Source of the DNA: Escherichia coli
Lineage (GTDB): Bacteria > Pseudomonadota > Gammaproteobacteria > Enterobacterales > Enterobacteriaceae
NCBI RefSeq assembly: GCF_029227855.1
Contig: NZ_CP074356.1
Strand: one strand, 5' to 3'
DNA length: 64,000 bases
This document shows, one piece after another, positions 2,428 to 30,627 of this stretch. Every line of letters begins with the position of its first letter. Position 1 is the first letter of the stretch. The translations under genes were made by a program, and so were the position numbers. Below the pieces are notes generated by a model that saw only the letters and a program-made list of their open reading frames with translations, was not told the DNA's origin and did not search any database.

Positions 2428-3171
2428 ATGACCACACCAAATCCACTGGCAAAGACGAAAGGTGCGGGGACGACGTTCTGGATGTATACCGGCAACGGCG
2501 ATGCGTTTGCGAACCCTTTGTCGGACACTGACTGGCTGCGTCTTGCGATGGTGAAGGATCTGCAACCTGGCGAAATGACCGCTGATGCAGAAGATGACAC
2601 TTATCTCGATGATGAAGATGCAGACTGGAAAACGACAACCCAGGGGCAGAAATCCGTTGGTGATACTTCGGCGACGCTGGCCTGGCGTCCGGGTGACAGC
2701 GGGCAGAAAAAACTGGTTCAGTTGTTCGACTCCGGTGAAGTCTGCGCGTTTCGTATCAAATATCCCAACGGCACTGTTGATGTTTTCCGTGGCTGGCTGA
2801 GCTCACTGGGTAAAACCATTGCCTCAAAAGACGTGATGACCCGCACTGTGAAAATCAGCGGTGTGGGGCGTCCGTATCTGGCAGAGGAAGGCACTGAAAC
2901 CGTGAGCGTTACCGGGCTGACAGTATCACCGGCGTCTGCCAGTGTAAAAGTGGGAGCAACCACCACGCTGACCTTTACAGTAAAACCTGACGGAGCCAGT
3001 GACAAAGCGATCAGTGTGCATTCGTCAGATCCACAGACTGCCACGGTTACCCTGAACGGACTTGTGGCCACGGTAAAAGGCGTGAAGCAGGGCAGTGTCA
3101 GCATTGTGGGCATGACCGCTGACGGGAATTTTGTGGCTGTGGCTGCGGTGACTGTCAGCGCCGCAGGTTAA
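2428..3171 (+). CDS. Major tail protein (lambda gpV-like) with C-terminal Ig-like (Big_2) domain
   Basis: ATG at 2428 follows an AAGGAGGTGG Shine-Dalgarno; 247 aa; C-terminus is a Thr/Val-rich beta domain typical of V. Confidence 0.9.
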   Translation: MTTPNPLAKTKGAGTTFWMYTGNGDAFANPLSDTDWLRLAMVKDLQPGEMTADAEDDTYLDDEDADWKTTTQGQKSVGDTSATLAWRPGDSGQKKLVQLFDSGEVCAFRIKYPNGTVDVFRGWLSSLGKTIASKDVMTRTVKISGVGRPYLAEEGTETVSVTGLTVSPASASVKVGATTTLTFTVKPDGASDKAISVHSSDPQTATVTLNGLVATVKGVKQGSVSIVGMTADGNFVAVAAVTVSAAG

Positions 3172-13569: not shown

Positions 13570-14272
13570 TGCACAGAAAACCCCCAGCTAGGCTGGGGGT
13601 TCCGGAAAGCTTTCAGCTTTGAGCCAGTTATTAAAACCCCTTTTGATTTGTTAAAACACTTTGCGGTCTGGCAACTGCAAGTGTCAAACAAGAAATCAAA
13701 AGGGGGTCCCAATGGGGAACGAAAAGAGCTTAGCGCACACCCGATGGAACTGTAAATATCACATAGTTTTTGCGCCAAAATACCGAAGACAGGTGTTCTA
13801 CAGAGAGAAGCGTAGAGCAATAGGCAGTATTTTGAGAAAGCTGTGTGAGTGGAAAAGCGTACGGATTCTGGAAGCTGAATGCTGTGCAGATCATATCCAT
13901 ATGCTTGTGGAGATCCCGCCCAAAATGAGCGTATCCGGGTTTATGGGATATCTGAAAGGGAAAAGCAGTCTGATGCTTTACGAGCAGTTTGGTGATTTGA
14001 AATTCAAATACAGGAACAGGGAGTTCTGGTGCAGAGGGTACTACGTCGATACAGTGGGTAAGAACACGGCGAAGATACAGGATTACATAAAGCACCAGCT
14101 TGAAGAGGATAAAATGGGAGAGCAGTTATCGATTCCCTATCCGGGCAGCCCGTTTACGGGCCGTAAGTAACGAAGTTGGATGCAAATGTCAGATCGTGTG
14201 CGCCTGTTAGGGCGCGGCTGGTAAGAGAGCCTTATAGGCGCATTTGAAAAACCTCCGGCTATGCCGGAGGAT
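13568..14272 (+). mobile_element. IS200-type insertion sequence (IS200/IS605 family); boundaries approximate
   Basis: About 0.7 kb, a single Y1 transposase gene, left-end hairpin AAAACCCCCAGC-TAG-GCTGGGGGTT and a second stem-loop over the tnpA ribosome binding site. Confidence 0.65.
13712..14170 (+). CDS. tnpA: IS200-type transposase TnpA (HuH Y1 transposase)
   Basis: 152 aa with an HxH-type motif (HIHMLVEI) and the usual IS200 TnpA length. Confidence 0.85.
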   Translation: MGNEKSLAHTRWNCKYHIVFAPKYRRQVFYREKRRAIGSILRKLCEWKSVRILEAECCADHIHMLVEIPPKMSVSGFMGYLKGKSSLMLYEQFGDLKFKYRNREFWCRGYYVDTVGKNTAKIQDYIKHQLEEDKMGEQLSIPYPGSPFTGRK

Positions 14273-28108: not shown

Positions 28109-28999
28109 ATGATCAAGAAGACAACGGAAATTGATGCCATCTTGTTAAATCTCAATAAGGCTATCGATGCCCACTACCAGTGGCTGGTAAGTATGTTTCA
28201 CAGCGTAGTCGCGAGAGATGCCAGTAAGCCAGAAATAACGGATAACCATTCTTATGGACTGTGCCAGTTTGGTCGGTGGATTGATCATCTGGGACCACTC
28301 GATAACGATGAATTACCTTATGTTCGGCTAATGGATTCTGCCCATCAACATATGCATAACTGTGGTCGGGAATTAATGCTGGCTATTGTTGAAAATCACT
28401 GGCAGGACGCGCATTTCGACGCCTTTCAGGAAGGGTTGCTTTCTTTTACTGCGGCATTAACCGATTACAAAATTTATTTGCTGACTATCCGTAGCAATAT
28501 GGATGTTTTGACGGGATTGCCGGGTCGTCGGGTTCTTGATGAATCCTTTGATCATCAGTTACGCAACGCTGAGCCTCTGAATCTTTATTTAATGTTGTTG
28601 GATATTGACCGATTTAAATTGGTTAATGATACCTACGGGCATTTAAACGGCGATGTAGTATTACGCACCCTGGCAACTTACTTAGCCAGTTGGACGCGCG
28701 ATTACGAAACGGTTTATCGCTACGGTGGCGAAGAATTTATCATTATTGTCAAAGCGGCTAATGATGAAGAAGCATGTCGTGCAGGTATCAGAATTTGCCA
28801 GTTAGTCGATAACCATGCCATCACACATTCTGAAGGGCATATCAACATTACCGTGACAGCAGGTGTCAGTCGCGCATTTCCTGAAGAGCCTCTGGATGTG
28901 GTCATTGGAAGAGCGGACCGGGCAATGTATGAGGGTAAGCAAACCGGAAGAAATCGCTGTATGTTTATTGACGAACAAAACGTGATTAACCGAGTTTAA
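28109..28999 (+). CDS. dgcZ: Zinc-sensing diguanylate cyclase DgcZ (YdeH)
   Basis: 296 aa from MIKKTTEIDAILLNL; GGEEF motif (YRYGGEEFIIIV). Confidence 0.9.
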   Translation: MIKKTTEIDAILLNLNKAIDAHYQWLVSMFHSVVARDASKPEITDNHSYGLCQFGRWIDHLGPLDNDELPYVRLMDSAHQHMHNCGRELMLAIVENHWQDAHFDAFQEGLLSFTAALTDYKIYLLTIRSNMDVLTGLPGRRVLDESFDHQLRNAEPLNLYLMLLDIDRFKLVNDTYGHLNGDVVLRTLATYLASWTRDYETVYRYGGEEFIIIVKAANDEEACRAGIRICQLVDNHAITHSEGHINITVTAGVSRAFPEEPLDVVIGRADRAMYEGKQTGRNRCMFIDEQNVINRV

Positions 29000-29039
29000 G
29001 CTCCGTTTAACATTCATTGAGAAAACTGATGCTACTGTG

Positions 29040-29147
29040 TCAACGATCCGTTATCAGTGCAGGAAAATGCCTGTTAGCGTAAAAGCAAAACACAAATCTA
29101 TCCATGCAAGCATTCACCGCCGGTTTACTGGCGGTTTTTTTTTGCCG
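29040..29147 (+). ncRNA. mgrR: Candidate MgrR-type small RNA; 5' end uncertain
   Basis: Strong intrinsic terminator (CACCGCCGG-TTTACT-GGCGG plus 9 T) about 120 nt after the dgcZ stop, in the dgcZ-mgtS gap where mgrR is expected. Confidence 0.3.
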
Positions 29148-29217
29148 TCATAAAAATCAGGCCCCTTGTACACAACTGTAACAAGGGGCCGGTTAGGTGA
29201 GGGATTATCTCCGTTCA

Positions 29218-29313
29218 TTAGTCATCCCATTTGTGGCTGAAATACGCGGCCAGAAAACCAGAAAATAAAATTATTCCCAGTACGGCCATAAAAACATTCA
29301 TATTACCCAGCAT
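29218..29313 (-). CDS. mgtS: Small membrane protein MgtS (YneM), 31 aa
   Basis: Hand translation gives MLGNMNVFMAVLGIILFSGFLAAYFSHKWDD with a GGAGG Shine-Dalgarno upstream and a hairpin terminator downstream; not in the supplied ORF track. Confidence 0.8.
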   Translation of the reverse strand: MLGNMNVFMAVLGIILFSGFLAAYFSHKWDD

Positions 29314-29439
29314 TATTTGCCTCCGTTTATGGTGTGGTGTGTTTCCTCGCTTACCTTAATTTTCATCTCAATGAGAAAGATATTAGCAGAGATAACCTAA
29401 ACGAAGGCTGAATTAAATTTTTATTGTGTTCGACTTAAA

Positions 29440-30627
29440 TCAACAAAGCGCGGGCTGCCCCCACGGTCTTGCACGAATTCCTTTTAACATCAGCACCCAC
29501 GCAGCAATAATCACCAACGTTAAGATGATAAACAGCGAGGAAGGCGGCAGGTTGGTTAGCACTACGCCACTCACTAATGGGTTAATCGCGGCACCAAGCC
29601 AGCCTAAAGACTGGGCGGAAAAATAGCTGGCTTTCATTCCTGGCGGCGCAATATGGTCAATCAACATATACTCGCCCGGCGCATAAATGATTTCACCGAC
29701 AGTAAATACCGCAGCTGACATACCCCACAATAGCAGGCTGTTGCCGGAAAAAATAAAACCAACCAGACCGATGACGAAACAGAGGGTGCCTGCTGTCATC
29801 AGCGCGCGGATGTTAGCCGGGTTAAGGCGGCGGCCCACGGAATATTGCAACGTAACTACCATGGCAGCATTCACCGGAAGAACAACCGCAACCACCTTTT
29901 CGGCAAAATCCCCATCAGCAATCACCATCACATATTGTGAAATGCATGAAGCAAATGCGCCGCTAACAAAGGAAGCCAGAAAACCAGAGCAGGTAAACCA
30001 CAACAGTGCTTTATCTTGTAATAAAACTTTCGGCGACCAGGCACTGCCTGTTTCCGTGGCGATGATTTTCTCGCTGCGCTTTACCCAAATTTGAATGAAA
30101 AGCATGGGAAACGCGGAACAGATAGCAGCCAGCCAAAAGGGCAGATTGATGCTCTGCATCACCAACAGCGTGCCGAGCGGCGGACCGATGGTCCAGCCAA
30201 TGTTGAGCATGGTGTAGTTGATTGAGAAGATTTTCGTTTTGCTGGTGGAGGAAAGATTGTCGGCAAACCAGGCTTTCAACACGGTAGCAAAAACGGAATA
30301 GGCGCAGTTAATAAGGGCAAAAAAGAGCACCACCAGCGTCACGTTATTCACTAAAGGAATGGCAATAAAACCGCTGGCGAAGGCGGTAATTGCCAGTAAC
30401 ATATAGCGTTTCTTGTCGAACTTATCCGCCAGGATACCAAAACCGAGACTAAAAACGACGCCAATAGTGAGCGCAATTGTCATCGCATAACCGATTAGAT
30501 CGACACTCAGGTTGTACTGGCGACTCAAGTAAATGGTCATAAACGGCAGCGTAGCGCCGCGTCCGATGGTTAATAACAACGACGAGGCAAGAAGGGCGCT
30601 GGTAGAGCGTCGGAGGGATAAGTTCAT
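29440..30627 (-). CDS. ydeE: MFS transporter YdeE
   Basis: 395-aa, 12-TM major facilitator protein in the expected position. Confidence 0.9.
   Translation of the reverse strand: MNLSLRRSTSALLASSLLLTIGRGATLPFMTIYLSRQYNLSVDLIGYAMTIALTIGVVFSLGFGILADKFDKKRYMLLAITAFASGFIAIPLVNNVTLVVLFFALINCAYSVFATVLKAWFADNLSSTSKTKIFSINYTMLNIGWTIGPPLGTLLVMQSINLPFWLAAICSAFPMLFIQIWVKRSEKIIATETGSAWSPKVLLQDKALLWFTCSGFLASFVSGAFASCISQYVMVIADGDFAEKVVAVVLPVNAAMVVTLQYSVGRRLNPANIRALMTAGTLCFVIGLVGFIFSGNSLLLWGMSAAVFTVGEIIYAPGEYMLIDHIAPPGMKASYFSAQSLGWLGAAINPLVSGVVLTNLPPSSLFIILTLVIIAAWVLMLKGIRARPWGQPALC

Follow-up and report, generated by a model that had tools for sequence, protein, structure and literature searches.

Does the stretch of DNA between positions 29,000 and 29,439 hold genes that a list of open reading frames (ORFs) fails to show and, if so, are they new? 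An earlier note on the 64,000 nucleotides of Escherichia coli contig NZ_CP074356.1 (assembly GCF_029227855.1) that were analyzed here, hereafter the window, had claimed from the letters alone that an unannotated 31-codon gene for the MgtS/YneM peptide lies on the minus strand, and that the small RNA MgrR is a candidate on the plus strand. We consider it close to certain that this stretch is the known mgrR / mgtS-mgtT low-magnesium locus of E. coli, situated between dgcZ and ydeE and composed of two convergent transcription units, both activated by PhoQ–PhoP. The identities of mgrR, mgtS, and mgtT are already known, the three genes having been annotated and experimentally characterized in K-12, and the allelic differences from that strain are trivial.

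The K-12 MG1655 annotation, which includes mgtS (b4599), mgtT (b4775), and the noncoding RNA mgrR (b4698), was carried across to the window by an ungapped alignment with only six differences in 486 columns, and the feature coordinates given below were obtained in this way. The 601 bases around the locus have a match in 5416 of the 5426 complete E. coli genomes, the RefSeq annotation of the matching genomes lists dgcZ, mgtT, mgtS, and ydeE, and an NCBIfam HMM search identified the flanking ORFs of the window as DgcZ and YdeE. The minus-strand gene said to be missing from the ORF track is indeed present at 29218–29313, with DNA identical to K-12 b4599, although the word unannotated is accurate only for the track that accompanied the earlier note, since mgtS and mgtT are in RefSeq and mgrR is also annotated in K-12. 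Likewise, the plus-strand terminator attributed to MgrR does belong to it, as supported by both the K-12 mapping and the Rfam family STnc560, and the alignment to K-12 mgrR that had been suggested as a check returned 97/98 identity rather than no match. The second small frame on the minus strand, mgtT, was absent from that first account.

The mgtS gene (yneM; 29218–29313, minus strand) encodes a 31-amino acid inner-membrane protein, MLGNMNVFMAVLGIILFSGFLAAYFSHKWDD, and its DNA is 100% identical to that of K-12. The claim that this ORF is the MgtS/YneM peptide is confirmed by that identity and by the NCBIfam equivalog model NF033842, which matched residues 1–31 of 31 with 80.6 bits (cutoff 35, E = 5.8e-23). 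The peptide is predicted to have one hydrophobic membrane-spanning stretch and ends in a C-terminal SHKWDD motif; orthologs have 25–31 of the 31 residues in common, and the variability at codon positions 1, 2, and 3 across genera (0.056, 0.020, and 0.243, respectively) is a strong coding signature. The Shine–Dalgarno sequence had been described as good, and a GGAGG is found at 29324–29320 on the minus strand, 6 nt before the ATG, with its GGAG conserved in the ortholog alignments. The intrinsic terminator of mgtS (29150–29190, minus strand), also anticipated by the earlier note, consists of a hairpin at 29190–29160 followed by the U-rich tract UGAUUUUUAU at 29159–29150. The hairpin has 13 pairs in both the minimum free energy and the centroid folds, and it was found by folding, having been missed by a terminator scan because of a bulge in the stem. 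All 34 distinct orthologous loci keep GGCCCCTTG...CAAGGGGCC and the T-run after it, while the upper stem and loop vary.

Transcription of mgtS probably starts near 29372 on the minus strand (29371–29373), 7–9 nt downstream of a conserved −10 hexamer, which would give a leader of about 58–60 nt; the start of mgrR, by comparison, was taken from the K-12 annotation. This position agrees with the use of the mgtS 5′ UTR as a 58-nt spacer (bioRxiv 10.1101/2021.06.30.450655). Within the leader there is a conserved element, AAGGTAAGCGAGG, at 29345–29357 (minus strand), some 30 nt before the real Shine–Dalgarno sequence, and its GAGG (29348–29345) does not vary among 34 distinct enterobacterial loci. 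Also in the leader, AAGGTAAG is kept in most genera, with the exception of Salmonella. No conserved start codon follows the leader GAGG in the 34-locus alignments. A pairing of this GAGG with the CCUC located after the mgtS stop codon, seen in the centroid fold, was rejected because the candidate partner varies without compensation (CCCTC, CCTGA, CCCCC, and CCCCA) while the GAGG itself does not, and the fold of the whole mgtS mRNA is no better than those of shuffled sequences (z = −1.0). A 17-codon ATG frame in the E. coli leader (29366–29313, minus strand), which terminates at the TAATG that also holds the mgtS start, was also discarded: its ATG is absent in Escherichia albertii and Citrobacter, it begins only some 6 nt from the inferred 5′ end, and it is probably not translated.

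Immediately downstream of mgtS, the mgtT frame (b4775; 29114–29218, minus strand) has 34 codons, 33 of the 34 residues being identical to those of K-12, and the final A of the mgtS stop codon is also the first base of its ATG (TAATG). Reading on across the mgtS terminator hairpin, the frame closes at a point 29 nt within mgrR, on the strand opposite the MgrR terminator. In the literature, mgtT belongs to a PhoQP-dependent operon with mgtS, and the MgtT protein is not membrane-bound (PMC11429745); a tagged MgtT was detected, at a lower level than MgtS (Weaver et al.). Most mgtS transcripts would be expected to end at the hairpin at 29190–29160, and full-length MgtT would come only from those reading through it into the antisense of the mgrR terminator.

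On one reading, which applies to mgtT only and which we hold to be true or false with about equal probability, MgtT has no function, being a by-product of ribosomes that restart at TAATG, with a sequence set by RNA elements. Several observations are in line with this. Two RNA elements fix nearly every codon of mgtT, namely the mgtS hairpin, spelled by the codons NRPLVTVVYKGP, and the MgrR terminator, whose reverse complement is spelled by KKKPPVNRR. Across genera the frame varies in length from 7 to 83 amino acids, reaching about 34 only in Escherichia, its C-terminus is not conserved, and its variability at codon positions 1, 2, and 3 (0.08–0.15, 0.18–0.24, and 0.23–0.28) is a weak coding signature compared with that of mgtS. 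Neither deletion nor overexpression of mgtT had an effect (PMC11429745), no NCBIfam model matched the protein, and conservation of MgtT as a protein in related genera was not found across 33 distinct loci, a result that leaves its membership within E. coli unaffected. The absence of a phenotype refers, however, to few conditions, the tagged protein is detectable, and the overlapping stop and start codons (T[AG]ATG) are invariant in 33/33 distinct loci, with a nearly invariant second codon, which indicates some constraint on the start. Given the weak codon signature and the variable length, therefore, the body of MgtT looks unconstrained and its start does not.

An invariant start on an unconstrained frame may also be read in another way, namely that mgtT conserves the translation event rather than its product, and that this event couples the translation of MgtS to the level or the termination of MgrR. 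Ribosomes restarting at TAATG would reach the hairpin that terminates mgtS and might prevent it from acting, with transcription and translation then carried on into the strand antisense to the mgrR terminator. We regard such a coupling as improbable; if true, it would amount to a previously undescribed cross-talk between the two arms of the locus, and the invariant GAGG of the mgtS leader could then be a second, unrecognized control point.

The opposite arm is occupied by mgrR (29045–29142, plus strand), a 98-nt Hfq-dependent sRNA 97/98 identical to K-12 b4698 and assigned to Rfam RF01407 (STnc560). The RF01407 model matched the window in full length at 29011–29224 on the plus strand, with 281.1 bits against a gathering score of 55 (E = 2.9e-64). 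The span of 29040–29147 proposed by the earlier note was therefore that of the right gene with slightly wide ends, as the K-12 annotation maps to 29045–29142. The same is true of its terminator, which had been placed at 29120–29147 and is present a few bases away, with a stem of eight pairs at 29116–29135 followed by nine T at 29136–29144. In a scan of the 600-bp region, the MgrR terminator was one of two terminator-like sites, against 0.6 expected.

The 98 nucleotides are predicted to fold with −25.9 kcal/mol (z = −2.9; none of 200 shuffles as good) into a 5′ stem-loop (29049–29079), an open middle, and the terminator, the same two-hairpin shape obtained by enzymatic probing of MgrR (PMC6239178). 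According to the same study, the open middle holds an A-rich (ARN)5 stretch and the U55–A68 pairing region; in the window these correspond, respectively, to about 29080–29096 and to 29099–29112, both being the same as in K-12. The seed region is unpaired at 17 of 20 positions in the predicted fold. The sequence also has the putative Hfq-binding modules of a class II sRNA, i.e., a terminator with a U tail and an internal A-rich stretch. Orthologs were collected with an exact scan for the 20-nt seed in species-representative genomes, which returned 67 loci from about 15 enterobacterial genera, in all of which loci the seed is invariant. In the alignment of 25 representatives, the seed and the terminator are invariant and the 5′ third has diverged. 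RNAalifold applied to these 25 orthologs supported the terminator helix only, with one AU/GC compensatory pair, and its silence on the 5′ hairpin is due to too many indels in the 5′ region of the alignment. When folded singly, 25/25 orthologs form a 5′ hairpin of their own and leave the seed mostly unpaired, an agreement of shape that is not covariation evidence.

STnc560 is the Salmonella name for MgrR, an equivalence that rests on the K-12 mapping and on Table 2 of Sittka et al. (2008), as a literature search for papers mentioning STnc560 together with MgrR found none. In Salmonella, STnc560 was described as an RNA of ~90 nt, 29-fold enriched by Hfq, and convergent to STnc570, a ~190-nt "yneM ORF" transcript of the same ydeI/ydeE intergenic region (Sittka et al. 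2008). The Rfam model is longer than the RNA, as it begins inside the promoter and extends through the mgtS terminator. Because it aligns end to end over 29011–29224, including the second hairpin, one could propose that the functional plus-strand RNA is this whole 214-nt unit, running past the first terminator to the second hairpin. We find this very hard to believe. Position 29011 falls within the PhoP box, before the conserved −10 hexamer is reached, so that a transcript from the mgrR promoter cannot have its 5′ end there. Moreover, the size in the Salmonella Northern is ~90 nt and the K-12 annotation has 98 nt, the first terminator is strong (eight pairs, then nine T), and the second hairpin is followed by a U tract only when read on the minus strand, where it serves mgtS. 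Most likely, the boundaries of the Rfam model are not transcript ends and reflect how the family seed was cut, and we retain the 98-nt MgrR as the product of the plus strand.

A last reading, that the 31-codon ORF and the adjacent hairpins are chance features of an intergenic region without genes, starts from the low weight of a 31-codon ORF taken by itself, the same 2.5-kb stretch being overlapped by 42 ORFs of 20 or more amino acids, and from the 0.6 terminator-like sites that chance alone would place in 600 bp. It was rejected as having practically no chance of being correct, given the identity or near-identity of the region to experimentally characterized K-12 genes, the scores of the STnc560 and NF033842 models far over their thresholds, the strong third-codon-position variation of mgtS across genera, and the occurrence of the locus in 5416/5426 E. 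coli genomes.

As to the control of the two units, the earlier note could discern no clean PhoP boxes by eye. That impression was correct in that the boxes match the consensus weakly; nevertheless, putative boxes exist, 12 nt from each −10 element and conserved across genera, and they escape the eye because each has one near-consensus and one degenerate half-site. PhoP recognizes the half-site (T/G)GTTTA, and in the promoters of architecture I a box in direct orientation lies 12 nt upstream of the −10 and acts in place of a −35 hexamer, as in mgtA, phoP, and slyB (Zwir et al. 2012; PMC3335776). In mgrR, the box CGTTTA-ACATT-CATTGA (29004–29020, plus strand) is direct and lies 12 nt upstream of the −10 hexamer TACTGT (29033–29038), which forms an extended −10 (29030–29038) with the TG at 29030–29031 and is itself 7 nt upstream of the annotated 5′ end at 29045. 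In mgtS, the box AATTCA-GCCTT-CGTTTA (29398–29414, minus strand) is likewise direct and 12 nt upstream of the hexamer TAATAT (29380–29385, minus strand). Judged by their sequence, both promoters appear to be of class II architecture I, with a direct PhoP box exactly 12 nt from the −10 and no −35, and both yneM and mgrR have been described as directly activated by PhoP (PMC3536696).

Matched to (T/G)GTTTA-N5-(T/G)GTTTA, each box has one half-site with 5/6 and another with 3/6 positions, a level at which a consensus scan alone is not significant: scanning the window for the plain consensus with up to three mismatches was uninformative, with 173 matches against about 153 expected. A generic sigma-70 promoter scan of 28900–29500 found nothing, which is expected of activator-dependent promoters without a −35 hexamer. 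Conservation across genera, by contrast with the scans, supports both half-sites of each box. Among 29 sequences upstream of MgrR, from about 14 genera, the pattern yGTTTA-N5-yrTTgA, a 12-nt spacing, and TG-n-TAnnnT are common to otherwise scrambled flanks; little or no variation is seen in the GTTTA or in the TT of the second half-site, and the −10 element conserves its TG, its TA, and its last T. For mgtS, the 23 upstream sequences have in common rrTTmA-N5-yGTTTA, 12 nt, and TAnnAT, the TA..AT of the hexamer being conserved across them. The mgrR pattern occurs in 64/65 distinct MgrR upstream regions and the mgtS pattern in 31/33 distinct mgtS upstream regions, in about 15 enterobacterial genera overall, with 65 occurrences of the former in 1.1 Mb of fetched DNA, counts that express specificity and not an independent test, since the patterns were derived from the same alignments on which they were counted. 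The 12-nt rule itself has independent backing in the work of Zwir et al. (2012). The architecture is essentially absent from that 1.1-Mb background, and each pattern appears once when both strands of the window are searched, at the expected place (the mgtS pattern starting at 29412). One helical turn before the main mgrR box there is an extra PhoP-type half-site, AGTTTA (28993–28998, plus strand). Together with the first half-site of the box, it forms AGTTTA-N5-CGTTTA (28993–29009), the best consensus match in the region, with two mismatches to KGTTTA-N5-KGTTTA; its role is uncertain, as Escherichia alone retains it, with partial retention in Citrobacter, Salmonella, and Kosakonia.

The ortholog set also yielded observations on the distribution of the locus. 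In the DNA fetched for Enterobacter, Lelliottia, Leclercia, Silvania, and Huaxiibacter, MgrR is found with the same seed, terminator, and PhoP-box promoter but with no mgtS nearby, an arrangement seen in more than 12 loci, and the convergent mgrR–mgtS pairing is therefore not universal. In Enterobacteriaceae bacterium RIT691, two MgrR seeds lie 1.6 kb apart on the same strand (1438–1457 and 3032–3051 of the fetched DNA), one copy adjoining mgtS and the other not, which suggests a duplicated MgrR-like sRNA. The mgrR–mgtS pair was also seen on two contigs assigned to non-enterobacteria: a metagenome-assembled genome labeled Caldithrix sp., with MgtS and MgtT identical to those of E. coli K-12, and Chryseobacterium sp. 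18061, which matches the type of Citrobacter sp. 18056, from the same project. Both are probably cases of contamination or mis-binning in public assemblies.

The Rfam scan of the whole window at the gathering threshold gave two matches. One is the STnc560 match already discussed; the other, RF01405 (STnc490), at 13579–13702 on the plus strand (144.6 bits), is unrelated to mgrR–mgtS. This segment is within an IS200C-family element, beside an Ail/Lom-family prophage gene, and the STnc490 RNA of Salmonella runs antisense to the beginning of the IS200 transposase gene. Genomes carry a median of three copies of the element, and only 153 genomes share its exact junction.

From the functions described in the literature, the working of the locus can be envisaged as follows. 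In low Mg2+, phosphorylated PhoP would activate both convergent promoters. MgrR would bind Hfq and pair through U55–A68 with the eptB and ygdQ mRNAs, repressing both, and this repression would change the modification of lipopolysaccharide. MgtS, at the inner membrane, would raise the levels of the Mg2+ importer MgtA, and MgtT would be made from the same mRNA as MgtS, with no known phenotype. The sequence-level prerequisites for this PhoP–MgrR–MgtS mechanism all appear to be present in the window, expression and PhoP dependence being taken from the literature.

The value of these results as a discovery is small, and their worth lies in quality control, as a 31-codon gene and an sRNA had been rightly recognized from the letters alone. 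The follow-up contributed the exact coordinates, the overlapping gene mgtT, and the positions of the PhoP boxes together with the reason for their unclean look. It also separates what is constrained across the Enterobacteriaceae, i.e., the MgrR seed, both terminators, both promoters, the stop–start overlap, and the leader GAGG, from what is not, i.e., the sequence of the MgrR 5′ hairpin and the body of MgtT.

Compared with K-12, the mgtS gene of the window presents no difference at all: the coding DNA is identical, and the Shine–Dalgarno sequence, the leader, and the terminator hairpin are the same. In mgrR, the seed, the A-rich stretch, and the terminator stem are shared with K-12, as are the neighbors (dgcZ upstream and mgtT/mgtS convergent) and the promoter sequence from 28982 to 29044, whereas the RNA itself carries one substitution, T4C, located 5′ of the first hairpin. 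In addition, the base just after the run of eight U is T (29143) where K-12 has C, so that nine U are found here against eight; we do not expect a functional consequence from either T4C or the longer U run. In mgtT, the 34-codon frame, the TAATG overlap with mgtS, and the 29-nt antisense overlap with mgrR are the same as in K-12, the difference being E26K. Both E26K in MgtT and the extension of the MgrR U run from eight to nine result from one base, the C to T change at 29143 from K-12 to the window, a single site common to two overlapping genes.

With respect to the PhoP promoters of architecture I, the likeness is that mgrR and mgtS each have a single putative direct box, 12 nt upstream of the −10, that would replace the −35. 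They depart from it in having only one near-consensus half-site per box, this being the half farther from the −10 in mgrR and the nearer one in mgtS, and the mgrR promoter of E. coli differs further by its third, in-phase half-site, which allows another box to be drawn, 23 nt before the −10.
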